A DNA stretch of 64,000 nucleotides. It comes from Cyanidioschyzon merolae. Its lineage: Eukaryota. Under the pieces are notes generated by a model. The model saw only the letters and a program-made list of their open reading frames with translations. It did no database searches and had not been told where the DNA came from. Below are positions 317 through 45,548 of this stretch, piece after piece. The position numbers and the translations under genes were made by a program. The stretch lies in NCBI GenBank assembly GCA_000091205.1, contig AP006490.2; one strand, written 5' to 3'. Each line of letters begins with the position of its first letter. Position 1 is the first letter of the stretch.

Positions 317-1237
317 TCAAAGCGAGCGGAAACGTTTCTGACTTGGCGTACGGCGCCGAGTGCGCAACCACTGCCAGTCCAGCGTTGGCAGAAGCGTGCA
401 CAAGGCATCTTCTAGTCGCGGTTGATGACCATGATCTAAACGCCACCAGTACTCGACGACGTTCCAAAACACGAGTGGTGACACCTGTGCCATTTTCGCT
501 GGTCGCAAATTCTCTCTATGTTCAGGAGGCATGCCGTAGACCTCCCGAATGATTTCCCGCAGCACATCCACAGGCAGACTGCGCACATGGGTGTCTTCGT
601 GCATTGCCGTGCGTGCGCCCATCTTGGGATACTGCACGATCCAAAAGCGAGACGCATTCCCGGAAGCACCAGTGTCAGCGTGGTCGGACTCCTCGCGTAC
701 CACGTGATATGAGCGTGCGAGTGCCGCTCGGTACCGATCCGCCGCTCGTACCTCCTGGTCGTGTTCAGTGCGCGCTTCACGCAGCGCTCTGCGAAACGCC
801 TGTGCTTCCCGAGCACTCCCCGCTGAGCCCGATAACGCGTTTACGAGTTGCGTTCCCAGTGCAGCAGTCGCCTCAGCGGGTTGAATCGCTGCATCCGTTG
901 CCAGTTGTTTCGCACCCCGGGTGCCAACAGGTCGCTTTCTATTTCTGGACGCAGTGTTCGTGTTCGTGCTCGGTCTTCGTCGATGGTGTGGCGTCTCAGG
1001 CACAGTGCTTTCCAGCAGAATCGTATCCAGGGGCTGAATATCCGCCGCAGTCTCCACTAACCGCGGTGGAACGCCAGCCCGCAGACGCTGACATGCAACG
1101 GGTACAGCGAACACCTGCTCAAGCCGCTGTCGCAGAGCCTCCAGACCGTGCTCGCCGGTCAAGTCGACCTCGTCGAGCACCTCCGCACGACCGGTACCCA
1201 CGTGCCGCACACATACACGAGCACAGTTGCGAGACAT
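317..1237 (-). CDS. hypothetical protein (306 aa ORF, no recognisable domain)
   Basis: Long GC-rich ORF on the minus strand. The overlapping plus-strand ORF is Pro/Arg-rich and looks spurious. No motif recognised. Confidence 0.3.
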   Translation of the reverse strand: MSRNCARVCVRHVGTGRAEVLDEVDLTGEHGLEALRQRLEQVFAVPVACQRLRAGVPPRLVETAADIQPLDTILLESTVPETPHHRRRPSTNTNTASRNRKRPVGTRGAKQLATDAAIQPAEATAALGTQLVNALSGSAGSAREAQAFRRALREARTEHDQEVRAADRYRAALARSYHVVREESDHADTGASGNASRFWIVQYPKMGARTAMHEDTHVRSLPVDVLREIIREVYGMPPEHRENLRPAKMAQVSPLVFWNVVEYWWRLDHGHQPRLEDALCTLLPTLDWQWLRTRRRTPSQKRFRSL

Positions 1238-1482: not shown

Positions 1483-2100
1483 ATGGCCTGTGCGCAAACC
1501 ATGTCTCTTTTGGTTGAAGACGAGGAGACCGGCCACGCTGACAAGGAAGGTCAAATCAGCGGGGCGCGTGTTCGGAAGGTGGTGCCAGCGCCCTGGTGTC
1601 GCAACCCGTTGGTCGAGATTCTGGTGATTTACAACGCCGACTCGACACTCGTGGGAGAGGTTCGATATTTTTTGCAAAAGGTGCTATTTCATAACTACTG
1701 CGCTGCTTGTGTGCTGACGCACGGACGGCGTAGCGAGAAGCCCGAGTGGGTCGCGCTCAAGTCCGGGCAGCACGACTGGGGTTCCAGGGTTCGCCTCCGG
1801 AACGTCCACCGAGACGAGATAGGACCAGAGGCCCGAAAGGTCGCCGGCAAACATCTGCCTTGTGTGCTGGGACGACTGGAGAACGGGTCGTACTTGTTGC
1901 TGCTCACGCGCGAGGAGCTCGAGCTCTGTAACGGCCACGTGGGCGGGTTCCGGGAGCGCCTCAGCGAAACCCTGGTCCGGCACGGTCTCTTTGTCTGGCT
2001 GGATGGCACTACAGGGGACGCGACCTTAACCAATGGTGCCTGCAAGATGGTCGCGGAGCACCTCGAGAATACGAATGCGACTGTAACGCATTCTCGATAG
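1483..2100 (+). CDS. hypothetical protein (205 aa)
   Basis: Uninterrupted ORF with plausible composition. No family recognised by eye. Confidence 0.3.
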   Translation: MACAQTMSLLVEDEETGHADKEGQISGARVRKVVPAPWCRNPLVEILVIYNADSTLVGEVRYFLQKVLFHNYCAACVLTHGRRSEKPEWVALKSGQHDWGSRVRLRNVHRDEIGPEARKVAGKHLPCVLGRLENGSYLLLLTREELELCNGHVGGFRERLSETLVRHGLFVWLDGTTGDATLTNGACKMVAEHLENTNATVTHSR

Positions 2101-2982
2101 GGATGCTAGTCTGTGGTATATTGGTTGTGTGTTTGAATTTCACTGCATCCGAGCAGAAGCTCCCGGATGCGTCCGTGTTACGGGCAACCAGGACAAAAAC
2201 CCGGATTCTTCCTCGAATGCTTCCACTGTTGACGGGCCCAGTAGAGTTTTCCGGTAAGGAGCAGACAGCGGCGACATGCCGGCACCGTCCGCGTGCCGGC
2301 CTGAGCGCAAAACTCGCATCCAGACCGAACCGTTTTTGGCGGTAAGATGCGGATGTTTGCCCGATGCAAGGTACGGTTGCATGCCCCTTGAAGTGCTTTC
2401 TCGTGCGAATGCCACATTTATGTTCGTGAACACGATTGCTCATCATGTTGTTGGATACGGAGATCGATATAGCAATCAGACAGGAAGGATCCATACGAAC
2501 GGCCTGCGCGGTGCATTTGAAATCTCTTTTTTCAATCCATTATCGGCGTTGTTTGAACGCCGCCCCATACCACGCTGATTTAGCTGCTCCTTAAACCCCA
2601 GAGTACCTCAATTGTGGACCCGCTCTTGCAGTGAACGCTGGCGCACCTATTCTTGCGGTAGTCATTCGACCGCGGCGCTGAACAACGTTCCGAATGGCGC
2701 AGCGTGCCACGCCCGTGATAACTCCCGCTTCTGGGGTTCTGTGCAGTCCTGGGGCTCCCAGACTCGTAGCGTATTATTCTTGTCTATGCACGGCGGGTCC
2801 GGGTTCCCGTGCGCATCCCAGGATATTGCACTGGTTTGACGCTTGGGAACGTGTGCTCCCGACGCAAGGCGCCTCAGACTCGCATCGACTCGGTTTACGG
2901 CAGGGGCTCCTGCGCAAAGCCTTCATGCTTCGATACGCAACGATCTTGACACTTCGAAGCGCTATGATGAGCGAAGCACCCG

Positions 2983-3309
2983 TTGTACGCAGTTTTGCTG
3001 CGTCGTTCCGTGCAGGCCTCTGACGCACCTGTTTGCGTAGCAGCGGTCAAACGTGGAACGTCAGCAGACGAAAACTGCCCTGACGCATCGATTATACGCA
3101 GTTTTGCTGCGTCGTTCCGTGCAGGCCTCTGACGCACCTGTTTGCATAGCAGCGGTCAAACGTGGAACGTCAGCAGACGAAAACTGCCCTGACGCATCCA
3201 TTGTACGCAGTTTTGCTGCGTCGTTCCGTGCAGGCCTCTGACGCACCTGTTTGCATAGCAGCGGTCAAACGTGGAACGTCAGCAAACGAAAACTGCCCAG
3301 TATCAAGCC
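2983..3309. repeat. Tandem repeat, 109-bp unit x3 (copies start 2983, 3092, 3201)
   Basis: Direct inspection shows the unit ttgtacgcagttttgctgcgtcgttccgtgcaggcctctgacgcacctgtttgc(g/a)tagcagcggtcaaacgtggaacgtcagcagacgaaaactgccctgacgcatc repeated with only a few substitutions. The six-frame ORFs repeat the peptide RSFAASFRAGL. Confidence 0.9.
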
Positions 3310-3438
3310 TCGCCACCCCGCGAGCCAGGCCATCGGCGCAGTGGGCAAGCGCGCAGCAGCGGCAACTGGAACGATCGGCATGGCGCAGTGAAGTCTTTAT
3401 ATACAAATTTTGTGGAACGTTCATAGCGAGTTCCTGTT

Positions 3439-3571
3439 TCTCGCGTGGTCTAGTGACCGCATCGAGCGACTAGATGTTAGCGTCAAATCGCGTCTGCCTG
3501 AAGCAGACCTTGACAACTCAGATGCCTGGCTTTCACCCAGGAGATCGCGGGTTCGAACCCCGCCGCGAGAA
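3439..3571 (+). tRNA. tRNA-Glu(TTC)-like gene with an approximately 60-nt insertion in the D-loop (non-canonical intron position)
   Basis: The 5' part TCTCGCG-TG-GTCT-AGTGAC matches a eukaryotic tRNA-Glu acceptor stem and D-stem start. After about 62 nt comes AGAT-G, which closes the D-stem. Then follow the anticodon arm CCTGG-CTTTCAC-CCAGG (anticodon TTC), variable loop AGATC, T-arm GCGGG-TTCGAAC-CCCGC, and the 3' acceptor strand CGCGAGA, which pairs perfectly with the 5' TCTCGCG, plus discriminator A. Apart from the oversized D-loop all arms are canonical. Confidence 0.55.
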
Positions 3572-4515
3572 ACCCCTTTTGACATCTTTTCGAATTGGCA
3601 GCGTACTGAGCAAGCGGCTCCCGCGCCGCGTTGGACGTGAAAACGCGTCACCTAAAGAGGCTGCCATCTGTTGTGCATAGTGCAGACTCGTGTTTTGCGT
3701 CGATCTTGCTTTTTGATGCCTATGGATGTGTGGGCATGAGGCCAGCATCATCAACGCTTTACCGTTCCATGCGCGCAAGTTCACGAGATCTGTCCGGGGC
3801 CCAGACGTTGCGTCGCACAGGTACGGTGTGCGAACGGGTATTCGACACTGAATGTGCCGCAGCGACGAAGCGGGTATTGTCGGGCGGGTACCCGGCGAGC
3901 GCTCTACCTACCAGCGCAAGCGCACGAGGGGTGCAAGGAGCAGTGAGCGGGCCCGGCGTCACGTCAGTAACGACGTTGTACGCGAGCATTTGGGGTACAG
4001 GTGTGCCAGGCTGGTACCCGGAGGACGTGTTGTTAGCACGCTCACAATGCGTCCATGCGGAGAATCCGGGGAATCCTTTTCTGCCGCGCAGTGCTTTCAA
4101 TATGCGGGGTCATGCAACCGAGTCAGCGCGTGCATGTTTTCGATCGCGACGCGGGTGCGATTCACGCTGCTGTACCCAGTGGGACGCTCAGTTGCGGAAA
4201 TAGCGTGGAGTTGGTGTGCAATGCTGGGGCCTGGTTGCTCGTGATCCGTTTCGCTGCAACCTGATCATGGGTTCTCGCATGGGGTGGCGGATGGCATTGG
4301 TAGTGCCGTTTGTCGGCTGTGCGCTTGAGCGGGCAAAAAAAGAGCCGGTTGAGAGCGCTGTATGATAGCCGTTACACCACGCCGGATGTGGACGGGGCGA
4401 TTTCCGGCGCCGGGATGTTCGAGGTGTCCGATCGAACCCGGATCTCAGCGGCGCTTTGCCGGAGCTGTCAAGTATAAGCGTGAAATCCGTATATAAAGCC
4501 TTGTGAGGCTTTGGA

Positions 4516-5532
4516 TTGATCGATGCCAGTCGGCTGATGCCTTGGGCGCTACGGGGTGCTGCAGCTTGCCGGTGTCGAGGATTCCAGCCCAGTATTGCAG
4601 TCTTTATGTGGGTCACGAGTGCGTATGCTCGTGGAAACCGGTTTGCAAGGTTCTTCGGCAGGCCCCGTTCTGCAGGAACGTGCGTCAGCGGGAGAATGTG
4701 TTCCATGGAGGTGCCCGCTCCAGCACACTATTCCGGGAACGTCAGCGACGACTTGGTCGCTCTCGCGCGAAGGATCGCTTCGGCCGGGTCTCAGGTGGTT
4801 GCTCGGCACTTTCGCCGAAAGGATTCCTACGTATCTTATACGAAAAAGGACCGCAGTCCTGTAACTGAGATTGACCGACAGGCCGAAGAGGCCATGCGTG
4901 CGGTTATTCGACGTGACGCGCCCGCAGCGCTGCAGGGGGTTCTCGGCGAGGAGCTGTCCGACTCGGACGTCAACCCACGCACTGGAGGCTTTCTCTGGGT
5001 GCTGGATCCGATTGATGGAACCAAAGCTTTCATGTGTGGAAAACCGACTTTTGCTACCCTGGTGGCCCTGCTGCGAGACGGCGAGCCCGTTCTCGGTATC
5101 ATTGAGCAGCCGTTTCTTGGCGAGTGCTGGCTTGGTGTCCACGGGCGACCGACGCTATGGAACACCCAAGTTGCGCATACTAACCAAACAAATACTGAGT
5201 TGTCAGCTGCAATTCTAAGCGCAACAACACCGGCTATGTTCCAGCACGCAAACCGCGAACGTTTCTTCGAGGGACTGGCAGCAAAAGTTTGGCAGGTGGT
5301 TTATGGCTGTGATAGCTACGCGTATGGCCTGCTCGCTGCCGGGTTCATCGACATCGTTGCTGAGGCAGATTTGAAACCCTGGGACTACATGGCCTTGGTT
5401 CCGATCGTTACTGGTGCTGGAGGTATCATCACTGACTGGAATGGTCAGGCGTTAACAGTGGAAAGCGACGGCCGAGTGTTAGCAGCTGCAAACCCCGAAC
5501 TTCACCGAAAAGCGCTCACAGCATTGCAGTAA
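4516..5532 (+). CDS. Inositol monophosphatase-family protein (IMPase / histidinol-phosphatase-like). The likely true start is an internal Met near 4696 to 4705.
   Basis: IMPase-family motifs are present: EIDRQAEEAMRAVI, WVLDPIDGTKAF, YGCDSYAYGLLAAGFIDIVAEADLKPWDYMALVPIVTGAGGIITDWNG. The first 60 residues of the ORF are Cys/Arg-rich and unlike the family. Confidence 0.8.
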   Translation: MIDASRLMPWALRGAAACRCRGFQPSIAVFMWVTSAYARGNRFARFFGRPRSAGTCVSGRMCSMEVPAPAHYSGNVSDDLVALARRIASAGSQVVARHFRRKDSYVSYTKKDRSPVTEIDRQAEEAMRAVIRRDAPAALQGVLGEELSDSDVNPRTGGFLWVLDPIDGTKAFMCGKPTFATLVALLRDGEPVLGIIEQPFLGECWLGVHGRPTLWNTQVAHTNQTNTELSAAILSATTPAMFQHANRERFFEGLAAKVWQVVYGCDSYAYGLLAAGFIDIVAEADLKPWDYMALVPIVTGAGGIITDWNGQALTVESDGRVLAAANPELHRKALTALQ

Positions 5533-43229: not shown

Positions 43230-45548
43230 TCACTGCATACGGCACTCGCGGCGCTGACCGCTGAGCGTACCACCACTACTACTACTACTACTACTCCGAT
43301 AGCGCAGCGCAAACTGCCGAACACAGAGCGCGATCAGATCCCGCTGTTCCGCACTGTTCGCTCGAAAGGCAAAGGTATGTTTCAGGGTGAGGCTGAACGC
43401 ATGCGCATCCGTCTCATCGAGGGCGACTTTGATGAAGGACGTCCAAGACTTCTTCTCTTCCGTAATCCAGTGACCCTCGCGGGGGTCAAAGTCCTCCGTC
43501 GCATGATAAAGGGATTCAGTCCAAGGATCAGCGGCACCAGCACCAGCACCAGCACCGGATGCTTGGTACGACTGCGCCGGGCGCTGAACGCTCAGATAGC
43601 GCTTGTGGACGAGGATACAGCGTGGAGCGCCCGACGCCTCGTCGCGAACCAGAAAAGCAGCGCGACCTTCGAGCATCCACACCGAGAGGCGTTCCTCCAT
43701 GGTCGGATCTACCTCGATTGGTGCAGTGAACGCTTGCAGCGCGGGTAGCCCCGCGGTTGCCTCGGTAACCGCGGCAAGTCGCATACCCACATCATCCGCT
43801 GTCGTTCGATAGCGATAGCCTTCAGCGCGGTAGGCGTATGGTGTAATGGACGCTGTTCGACGCGACAAATGATACCAGCGCACTCTTGGACCGGAACTCG
43901 ATTCGAGACCGTTCATCACTGCTGTCAGCGTACGATTATTGAAACATTCACCCTGGATGACCAGACGGGCATCCGCTTGGATGCGATCACTGGGAATCTC
44001 GGTACGTTCGGAGCGCTCTGGTCGAGTACCCTGCGAATGTTCATGCAACGTTGCTGTTGCTGTTGCTGCTGCTGCTTCTGCTGCAGGTGCTCCGCCTCGC
44101 GCCAAGCTCCCTGCTACGCTTGGTGAGAGATGTTGTGAGGTTTCGTGTCCATGCGGCTGCGCTTGGCATCCTAGTTTGCGAGAAGGAGTTAGCGGCTCAA
44201 TCTGGTCTTCGTGGAGCGTTTCGATGTCCTCGGGAACGCGTTCAGCGCCGCGTCCACCGGGGGTGTCGGCAGCACGCCAGGCACTGAGCCTGGCAGACGA
44301 TGTGGCTGGTTGCGCCTCTACAGCAGCGAGATCAAGCGGTGCGACCGTCTCTATCGATTGTTTGCTCCAGCTCGATGCTAGCCTAGCAGCGGCTGGGCGT
44401 GCCCTTCGAACGGAAGCGCCGCTTTCCAGGCGTGTACTGTGAGAAGCTGACGGTGTCTGTGACAAGCGCATCTCACGAAGCGGCACGCCTGGGGCATCGT
44501 TCTCGGAAAGCTCGCGGGGATGCGTCCAGGGCATCTCTGGTATTTGGGCGTTATTCTTCAAGGAGACGGATCCCGAGGTGCGTTCTGGGGAAACACCACT
44601 GGCAACCGCGCAGATGCTGAGGTCCGAAGTACCACCGGACGACCCTGGCACGGATTCCGGTACCGCAGGTTCAGCACCCGCACGTGAAACGATGCCTATC
44701 GGGTGTCGCTGTGCTGGTGCAGTGGCATCGGGACTTGCAGGTAACGCACTGGTAACGAGTGCTTGTTTTTGTGCACGCAAAACCTGAACCAAGTCTGCCT
44801 GGATCGCATTCTCCTCATCAAGGCCCTGGAGACGTTGCAGCTGTTGATCTCGCTGAGTTTTCAGCTTGTGAAACTCCTGCTCTCCTGCTTGAATTTCATT
44901 TTCTAAAGAAGAAAGTTCGGCAGCCAGACGTGTCTTCTCGCTTTCGCCGGCGGCAATCTGAGCAGTTCGTTCAGCGTTCTCTCGACGCAGTCGCTCGATC
45001 TCAGACTGAAGATGCTCCAGTCTTCGGCGCAGTGGTTCAGTCATTCGCGTGACCTGTTGCCAGGCTCCAATACGCGTCTGGAGGAGTTCGCGTTCGCGCA
45101 GGTATCGTTGCCGCATAGCCTCGCGCTCGCTGAGCTGGTGTAACAGCGCTCGTAGCGTTTCATCTTCGCGTGGTTCCTCACCACCAGCTAGCTCTAAACG
45201 CTGCCGTGTCAGGTCCAAAACCTCTTCATACGCTGCATTGAGTCGCTCTAAAGCAGCGTTTGTATTCTGGAGGAGACGAAGCACCGAGCTCTCCAGAGCG
45301 CGTTTTGTTGTTGCCGCTGATCCTAGAGAGCTTGTTCGACGCTGGTTCACTGCAACCTGCACTTGAGACAGACTTCGTTCCCGTTCCGTCAAAAGTTGTT
45401 CCAAGTTCGCTAGACGTGTACGCTCCGCGGCGATTTGGGGCTCCAGGGTTTCTACGCTCGGGTCGAGAAGGCGACTGGGCTCCGCGCTCGTCTCTGCTTC
45501 TGAGCGCAGCGGCGGATGCTTCAAGGAAGCGTCCCAGCTTGCATCCAT
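43230..45548 (-). CDS. hypothetical coiled-coil protein, 772 aa
   Basis: Long ORF. The N-terminal half is heptad-like and Glu/Arg/Leu/Gln-rich. The C-terminal part is globular and unrecognised. Confidence 0.55.
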   Translation of the reverse strand: MDASWDASLKHPPLRSEAETSAEPSRLLDPSVETLEPQIAAERTRLANLEQLLTERERSLSQVQVAVNQRRTSSLGSAATTKRALESSVLRLLQNTNAALERLNAAYEEVLDLTRQRLELAGGEEPREDETLRALLHQLSEREAMRQRYLRERELLQTRIGAWQQVTRMTEPLRRRLEHLQSEIERLRRENAERTAQIAAGESEKTRLAAELSSLENEIQAGEQEFHKLKTQRDQQLQRLQGLDEENAIQADLVQVLRAQKQALVTSALPASPDATAPAQRHPIGIVSRAGAEPAVPESVPGSSGGTSDLSICAVASGVSPERTSGSVSLKNNAQIPEMPWTHPRELSENDAPGVPLREMRLSQTPSASHSTRLESGASVRRARPAAARLASSWSKQSIETVAPLDLAAVEAQPATSSARLSAWRAADTPGGRGAERVPEDIETLHEDQIEPLTPSRKLGCQAQPHGHETSQHLSPSVAGSLARGGAPAAEAAAATATATLHEHSQGTRPERSERTEIPSDRIQADARLVIQGECFNNRTLTAVMNGLESSSGPRVRWYHLSRRTASITPYAYRAEGYRYRTTADDVGMRLAAVTEATAGLPALQAFTAPIEVDPTMEERLSVWMLEGRAAFLVRDEASGAPRCILVHKRYLSVQRPAQSYQASGAGAGAGAADPWTESLYHATEDFDPREGHWITEEKKSWTSFIKVALDETDAHAFSLTLKHTFAFRANSAEQRDLIALCVRQFALRYRSSSSSSSGGTLSGQRRECRMQ

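Follow-up and report, generated by a model that had tools for sequence, protein, structure and literature searches.

The locus and its surroundings

The window analyzed here is a stretch of 64,000 nucleotides from chromosome 8 of Cyanidioschyzon merolae 10D, with a G+C content of 55.8%. An earlier note, made from the letters of this DNA, had pointed to a cyanidialean red alga and to a tRNA-Glu(TTC) gene split by a single insertion. The lineage assignment holds, since three open reading frames of the window, all on a contig of 739,753 bp, are exact matches to C. merolae 10D proteins, including the following:

317-1237, minus strand: CMH091C, exact protein match
43230-45548, minus strand: CMH110C, exact protein match

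The feature at 3439-3571 is a real nuclear tRNA-Glu(UUC) gene of C. merolae 10D. It sits in an intergenic stretch of approximately 2.5 kb (window positions 2100-4600), flanked by a 205-aa open reading frame (1483-2100) on one side and by an inositol-phosphatase-family gene (ending at 5532) on the other. The same interval occupies less than 1 kb in Cyanidium. Short open reading frames that metagenome gene callers place over the C. merolae interval are probably spurious.

Standard scanners pass over the gene. In the whole intact window, ARAGORN reported no tRNA gene in its plain mode and none with its intron options (-i, -io, -if, -ir, and -i0,300), and Rfam gave no match at the gathering score. 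A permissive Rfam search returned a local match to the tRNA model at 3520-3563, covering the anticodon and T arms only, with 23.5 bits (gathering score 29). Once the insert is excised, ARAGORN calls tRNA-Glu(ttc). The 3' two-thirds of the gene occurs a single time in the window, with zero occurrences expected in shuffles, and the only T-arm-like motif in the window is the one in this gene. The CCA end is not encoded at the 3' end of the gene. On the minus strand opposite the introns, the window carries a weak Rfam match to RAGATH-11 (3407-3508; 15.6 bits, gathering score 79.4, E = 1.4), which we took as chance.

Architecture of the gene

The elements of tRNA-Glu that had been recognized earlier are present where the earlier note placed them: the acceptor stem TCTCGCG (3439-3445)/CGCGAGA (3564-3570) followed by the discriminator A3571, the 5' D-stem strand GTCT (3448-3451), the anticodon arm CCTGG-CTTTCAC-CCAGG (3525-3541), and the T arm GCGGG-TTCGAAC-CCCGC (3547-3563). 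Its broader view, of a tRNA-Glu(TTC) gene with non-canonical interruptions of the bulge-helix-bulge (BHB) type in the D-arm, is supported. The split-gene observation is thus confirmed in part: the split, the identity of the tRNA, and the kind of organism stand, and the anatomy does not. Instead of one insertion of roughly 68 nt between the D-stem halves, read as a single D-loop intron of ~60-70 nt, there are a 20-nt intron at 18/19 and a 40-nt intron at 22/23, surrounding the conserved micro-exon GTTAG (3476-3480). Judged from the sequence and its relatives, tRNA-Glu(UUC) is very likely encoded in three exons of 17, 5, and 51 nt with two BHB introns.

Junctions were placed by the BHB rule, in which a 4-bp central helix lies between two 3-nt bulges on opposite strands and the cut falls after the second bulge base. 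The resulting parts are listed below, where BHB 1 and BHB 2 belong to introns 1 and 2, respectively, and a slash inside a bulge marks the predicted cut.

3396-3403, plus strand: TATA-like sequence TTTATATA as a putative Pol III promoter; spans -43 to -36 relative to tRNA position 1
3439-3455, plus strand: exon 1 TCTCGCGTGGTCTAGTG (tRNA positions 1-18), comprising the 5' acceptor strand, U8 and G9, the 5' D-stem strand GTCT, and A14, G15, U16, and G18 of the D-loop; end set by BHB 1
3456-3475, plus strand: intron 1 ACCGCATCGAGCGACTAGAT, 20 nt, in the D-loop between G18 and G19
3450-3453 with 3470-3473: BHB 1 central helix, CTAG with CTAG, 4/4 pairs (CTAG is self-complementary)
3454-3456 (TG/A) and 3474-3476 (AT/G): BHB 1 bulges
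3458-3460 with 3466-3468: BHB 1 inner stem, CGC with GCG
3476-3480, plus strand: exon 2, the micro-exon GTTAG, giving G19, U20, U20a, A21, and G22
3481-3520, plus strand: intron 2, 40 nt, in the D-stem between positions 22 and 23
3455 and 3476-3478 with 3515-3518: BHB 2 central helix, G3455 plus GTT with AACT
3479-3481 (AG/C) and 3519-3521 (CA/G): BHB 2 bulges
3482-3486 with 3510-3514: BHB 2 inner helix, GTCAA with TTGAC
3492-3497 with 3503-3508: apical hairpin of intron 2, GTCTGC with GCAGAC
3521-3571, plus strand: exon 3, comprising GAT (positions 23-25), G26, the anticodon arm, the variable loop AGATC, the T arm, CGCGAGA, and A3571; after GTTAG in the spliced product it begins GATGCCTGG
3532-3534, plus strand: anticodon TTC, within the arm CCTGG-CTTTCAC-CCAGG
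3577-3580 and 3587-3590, plus strand: two T4 runs, 6 and 16 nt downstream; putative Pol III terminator

Exon 1 ends two bases 3' of the helix strand CTAG at 3450-3453, and the micro-exon is the source of both G19 and G22. A cloverleaf judged by RF00005 criteria, with isotype Glu, anticodon UUC, and G18G19, is obtained only once both introns are removed. The doubly spliced product is 73 nt long and has a 7-bp acceptor stem, 5-bp anticodon and T stems, a 7-nt anticodon loop, the T-loop TTCGAAC, and the D-stem GTCT/GGAT. ARAGORN scores it as tRNA-Glu(ttc) at 121.1 with the D-loop AGTGGTTA. This combination of D-stem and D-loop is what we take to be the usual D-arm of eukaryotic tRNA-Glu.

Placement of the splice junctions

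ARAGORN tolerates abnormal D-loops, so its score alone cannot fix the junctions, and in a scan of single excisions many deletions yielded tRNA-Glu. The doubly spliced products score best (121-122, compared to 108-117.5 for the single-excision alternatives), and only the doubly spliced product carries the D-loop AGTGGTTA with G18G19.

A single large D-loop intron of about 56-62 nt would instead draw the mature D-loop from the ends of the insert, for example as AGTGACAACTC, AGACAACTC, or AGTGGACAACTC; we regard this reading as improbable. The many excisions that ARAGORN accepts speak for it, as do the D-loop introns of up to 69 bp given in the text of Soma et al. (2013), and one such product resembles the D-loop AGTGGACAA of an unrelated tRNA-Glu from a metagenomic contig. 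A strict-looking BHB can also be drawn for 3453-3511 (GGTC/GACC, 4/4 pairs, with outer and inner helices of 2 bp each). This candidate, the best match to a strict one-intron BHB, leaves a D-loop without GG and was dropped after the lineage comparison. GG is absent throughout 3454-3519, so a single excision cannot supply G18G19, except for one that leaves a 12-nt D-loop, and the normal T-loop TTCGAAC is the expected contact partner of G18G19. The junctions suggested by the earlier note (3457/3458 and 3519/3520) were checked for a BHB and have only 0-2 of the 4 central-helix pairs, and the scores of single excisions lie below that of the two-intron product. Moreover, a single intron offers no account of why GTTAG is invariant or why a CTAG/CTAG helix ends two bases before it, and the GACAAC motif finds its explanation in BHB 2, where it supplies the 3' sides of the inner and the central helix.

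For the two-intron architecture, BHB geometry predicts cuts at 3455/3456 and 3475/3476 (BHB 1) and at 3480/3481 and 3520/3521 (BHB 2), and these coincide with the exon borders needed for a canonical tRNA in all four lineages compared below. Exactly one double-BHB solution exists in the real sequence, the one with the micro-exon GTTAG. When the 65 nt between exons 1 and 3 were shuffled (n = 5000), any double-BHB solution appeared in 12 of the 5000 sequences and a usable micro-exon in 1 of the 5000.

The central helix of BHB 2 (GGTT/AACT) has 4/4 pairs after removal of intron 1 and 3/4 before. Local energies are -4.4 kcal/mol for BHB 1 and, with intron 1 removed, -8.2 kcal/mol for BHB 2, both inside the range of -11.2 to +1.15 kcal/mol given in the text of Soma et al. 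(2013; PMC3728597). Intron 2 has an inner helix h' of 5 bp and intron 1 one of 3 bp, which in C. merolae follows a C·A mismatch. An outer helix h is missing from BHB 1 and measures only 2 bp in BHB 2, so both motifs are of the relaxed type, fitting the HBh' class as described in the text of Soma et al. (2013). Nearest-neighbor folding of the whole precursor disfavors the BHB fold (-42.3 kcal/mol, compared to -54.1 for the minimum free energy structure), and base-pair probabilities of the BHB helices in the precursor are below 0.1, which is a weakness of the purely computational case.

Several other candidates were rejected. A spliceosomal, group I, or group II intron was set aside on the borders AC..AT (20 nt) and CG..CA (40 nt) and on the absence of a match to any Rfam intron family. 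A BHB at 3452-3487 (central helix 4, outer helix 4) would pair CGCG 3442-3445, part of the acceptor strand, with bases of the intron, and its excision leaves a 32-nt D-loop and no tRNA. A variant with the micro-exon GACTAGATG (introns 3456-3467 and 3477-3524) scores 120.1 but lacks a BHB and is not conserved. Finally, a box C/D guide RNA within the intron was considered; its CUGA (3498-3501) is unconserved in relatives, and a C box is absent.

Comparison across lineages

Four related lineages were compared. Distant relatives of the C. merolae locus were reached through neighboring proteins, namely the inositol-phosphatase-family protein, which led to Cyanidium caldarium (58% identity), and CMH091C, whose homologues (55-57% identity) led to L024 and L025. 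The orthologous tRNA genes are as follows:

L023:9308-9494: Cyanidium caldarium, JANCYW010000019.1
L024:5023-4891: an uncultured lineage from a JGI metagenome
L025:3062-2933: an uncultured lineage from a Logan assembly

At all three loci (3/3) the tRNA-Glu(TTC) gene has the CMH091C homologue on one side and the inositol-phosphatase-family gene on the other, and past that homologue comes a gene for cysteinyl-tRNA synthetase. On the Cyanidium locus, ARAGORN with introns allowed also reports, between the NUDIX and MFS genes, a tRNA-Phe(gaa) interrupted by a 16-nt intron (L023:3056-3147, minus strand); the C. merolae counterpart of that region is past the left edge of the window.

Exon 1 TCTCGCGTGGTCTAGTG, the micro-exon GTTAG, and the exon 3 start GATG are common to all four lineages. 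Across them the exons (73 nt) are 94.5-100% identical, the introns 34-73%, and the flanks 57-67%. Intron lengths vary (20, 20, 22, and 41 nt for intron 1; 40, 37, 38, and 50 nt for intron 2), as do the bases that border the invariant GTTAG, where the two preceding bases are AT, AA, AA, or CG and the following base is C, T, G, or A. The upstream element is also shared: TTTATATA recurs at about -41 in L025 and about -40 in L024, and in Cyanidium the counterpart is TTTATTT at about -35. Downstream of every orthologue there are T-runs (T8 in L024, T4 in L025, and T3 plus T5 in Cyanidium). This arrangement matches the text of Soma et al. (2013; PMC3728597), in which most C. merolae tRNA genes have a TATA-like sequence upstream and a T-stretch nearby, and the A box is often interrupted.

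Of the 68 helix cells, 63 are paired in the proposed register, compared to 17-35 once the 3' strand is moved by 1-3 bases, although conserved pairs in lineages related by ancestry are not independent events. The central helix of BHB 1 has 4/4 Watson-Crick pairs in every lineage, and the inner stem of intron 1 has 13 of 16 cells paired in register versus 3-8 when slid; its sequence differs from lineage to lineage, and a small hairpin is formed in all of them. For intron 2, 16 of 16 cells of the central helix and 18 of 20 cells of the inner helix are paired, the latter having changed on both sides between C. merolae (GTCAA/TTGAC) and Cyanidium (GTCTC/GGGAC). The anticodon-stem pair 27-43 shows a compensatory change from C-G to T-A in Cyanidium, suggesting selection on the tRNA itself.

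Splicing in this way yields a tRNA-Glu(ttc) with a score of 120.3-121.1 in each of the four lineages, and junctions set by the BHB rule give an identical D-arm in 4/4 lineages. A single intron would give mature D-loops that vary by lineage (TCA, TCC, CCT, or TCG before GATG), although the other exon bases are 94.5-100% identical. The same comparison bears on the reading of AGAT (3520-3523) as the 3' half of the D-stem, which has to be given up: all four bases (A, C, T, and G) occur in front of GATG among the lineages, so A3520 is assigned to the intron and G22 comes from the micro-exon.

It also bears on the possibility that there are two introns with one junction shifted, either with intron 2 at 3480-3519, giving A22 (GTCT/AGAT), or with a cut in Cyanidium within the CTAG repeat, giving AGCGGTTA. 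The A22 variant scores slightly higher in ARAGORN (122.0 versus 121.1), and the direct CTAG repeats that flank intron 1 of Cyanidium make an alternative splice conceivable. Against these points, the shifted junction would put A, C, T, or G at position 22, depending on the lineage, rather than the invariant G obtained under the BHB rule, whose cuts two bases 3' of each central-helix strand produce the identical D-arm noted above. We therefore consider a shifted junction very improbable.

The locus might also be a tRNA pseudogene or a tRNA-derived repeat with an insertion that is not expressed as a functional tRNA, an alternative raised by the earlier note and favored by the silence of standard tRNA finders and of Rfam at the gathering score. 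We give it hardly any weight and regard the gene as functional. Exons that are 94.5-100% identical over four lineages are difficult to reconcile with it when the introns and flanks are only 34-73% identical and the neighboring protein only 38-57%. The compensatory anticodon-stem change, the conserved synteny, TATA-like box, and T-runs, and the single copy within the window argue in the same direction, as does the minimal set of 43 tRNA genes, the anticodon repertoire of which, according to the text of Soma et al. (2013; PMC3728597), is sufficient only once disrupted genes are counted.

Closer relatives were also found. Metagenomic contigs that encode the same CMH091C protein are 97-98% identical at the locus and carry the same tRNA gene, and the apical loop of intron 2 holds their only in-gene substitutions (3499 and 3500); as a guide to the junctions they were rejected as too similar. 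Two of them (L003 and L004) have several substitutions and an indel in the leader (3415-3431), with an invariant TATA-like box and invariant exons. A pattern scan of metagenomes recovered only three near-identical Cyanidioschyzon contigs and unrelated tRNA-Glu genes. The unrelated gene mentioned above (L013:~840-920, minus strand; Ga0114919_10165851, 40% G+C) is an uninterrupted tRNA-Glu(UUC) whose anticodon arm and variable loop (AGATC) match those of C. merolae.

The Cyanidium orthologue contains a third intron of 23 nt at the canonical 37/38 position (L023:9436-9458), and its intron 1 is enlarged to 41 nt with a G+C-rich hairpin. The 37/38 intron is absent from the orthologues of C. merolae, L024, and L025, pointing to a gain or a loss of this intron somewhere in the Cyanidium-Cyanidioschyzon group compared here.

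Proposed splicing pathway

Following Soma et al. (2013), RNA polymerase III would make one linear precursor that extends from the TATA-like element to the T-runs. Each junction pair then folds into its BHB motif, as the sequence and the lineage comparison show. The tRNA-splicing endonuclease, for which the catalytic subunits cmSen2 and cmSen34 are named in the literature for C. merolae, would cleave each 3-nt bulge behind its second base, with the exons then joined by a ligase. The expected outcome is the 73-nt tRNA UCUCGCGUGGUCUAGUGGUUAGGAUGCCUGGCUUUCACCCAGGAGAUCGCGGGUUCGAACCCCGCCGCGAGAA, to which CCA would be added. With two introns removed, the mature tRNA would read ...GGUCUAGUGGUUAGGAUGCC... 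rather than carrying another D-loop, such as AGUGACAACUC.

The two motifs overlap at G3476, which belongs to a bulge of BHB 1 and to the central helix of BHB 2. Because G3476 serves both BHBs and the 4/4 central helix of BHB 2 needs G3455 (G18) beside G3476 (G19), intron 1 is probably removed before intron 2 in C. merolae. In L025 and Cyanidium, the unspliced transcript already offers the first central-helix pair of BHB 2, so dependence on the removal of intron 1 would not be universal.

Relation to known systems

[quoted passage not shown] Disrupted genes are likewise familiar in this organism: the text of Soma et al. (2013; Sci Rep 3:2321; PMC3728597) reports introns in 27 of the 43 nuclear tRNA genes, 12 of which have several; the D-loop holds 14 of the introns and the D-stem 5, they measure 11-69 bp, and their BHB motifs are strict or relaxed. 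In the same study, RT-PCR showed that other C. merolae tRNAs (Asn, Phe, Ile, and Gly) are spliced. Later reviews and PlantRNA 2.0 repeat these intron findings. The gene studied here shares with those genes the genome, the ectopic and multiple introns of the D-loop and D-stem, and the BHB or relaxed BHB motifs, and we find no difference in kind as far as the text of that study describes them. It belongs to the disrupted-gene class defined there and fits it in every tested respect. Glu is not named in the text of Soma et al. (2013); the reviews examined do not mention a C. merolae tRNA-Glu, and a literature search with its exon sequences gave no match. Since the 43-gene set as described there is minimal with a sufficient anticodon repertoire, Glu(UUC) is almost certainly among the genes that these authors listed. 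The feature is thus already known as a kind, and very probably as this very gene. One contrast concerns the motifs themselves: most pre-tRNA introns form their BHBs independently and un-nested according to the text of Soma et al. (2013), whereas the BHBs of tRNA-Glu share G3476.

Several non-canonical, BHB-defined introns per gene are also found in Crenarchaeota and other archaea (Sugahara et al., 2008, 2009; Marck and Grosjean, 2003; as cited in later papers), and in both cases recognition relies on the BHB motif and not on the distance from the mature domain. C. merolae differs in that the host is eukaryotic, the gene nuclear, and the endonuclease of the Sen2/Sen34/Sen54 type, and the text of Soma et al. 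(2013) states that its disrupted tRNA genes have no sequence similarity to those of archaea. Within the red-algal lineage, introns of the D-loop and T-loop are described for Chondrus crispus (PlantRNA 2.0; Cognat et al., 2022) and the nucleomorph of Guillardia theta (Kawach et al., 2005), and splicing of the non-canonical introns of C. crispus was confirmed by RT-PCR (Cognat et al., 2022). The D-loop introns of C. crispus are always at 20/21, whereas those of C. merolae tRNA-Glu are at 18/19 and 22/23, and many introns of the G. theta nucleomorph lack a BHB. The canonical 37/38 intron presumably shares the enzyme family and cleavage chemistry; the C. merolae gene is without it, and both of its introns lie in the D-arm, out of reach of the yeast ruler mechanism for positioning the cuts.

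Implications

As a discovery the gene is minor, since such introns of C. merolae have been textbook material for specialists in tRNA processing since 2013. The residual novelty is small and lies in two points: cyanidialean lineages share both intron positions and the 5-nt micro-exon, and the two BHBs overlap. Our literature search turned up no published study that compares where nuclear tRNA introns lie across Cyanidiophyceae. In practical terms, an essential gene that decodes GAA escapes ARAGORN and Rfam at default thresholds, and a naive single-intron repair of the locus yields a wrong mature sequence.

Taken together, we tentatively propose, with somewhat less than even confidence, a reading in two parts. 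The D-arm introns and the micro-exon would be older than the split between Cyanidioschyzon and Cyanidium, with positions that stayed fixed despite sequence turnover and the gain or loss of the 37/38 intron. At the same time, the BHBs with their shared base would constitute a partly nested, ordered pathway in C. merolae, undescribed by Soma et al. (2013) for this organism, in which intron 2 becomes a full substrate only after intron 1 has been removed. The base shared by two adjacent BHBs offers a testable prediction on splicing order, and the cross-lineage comparison supplies evidence from beyond C. merolae 10D that the introns may be old and fixed in position, with constraint confined to the BHB cores.
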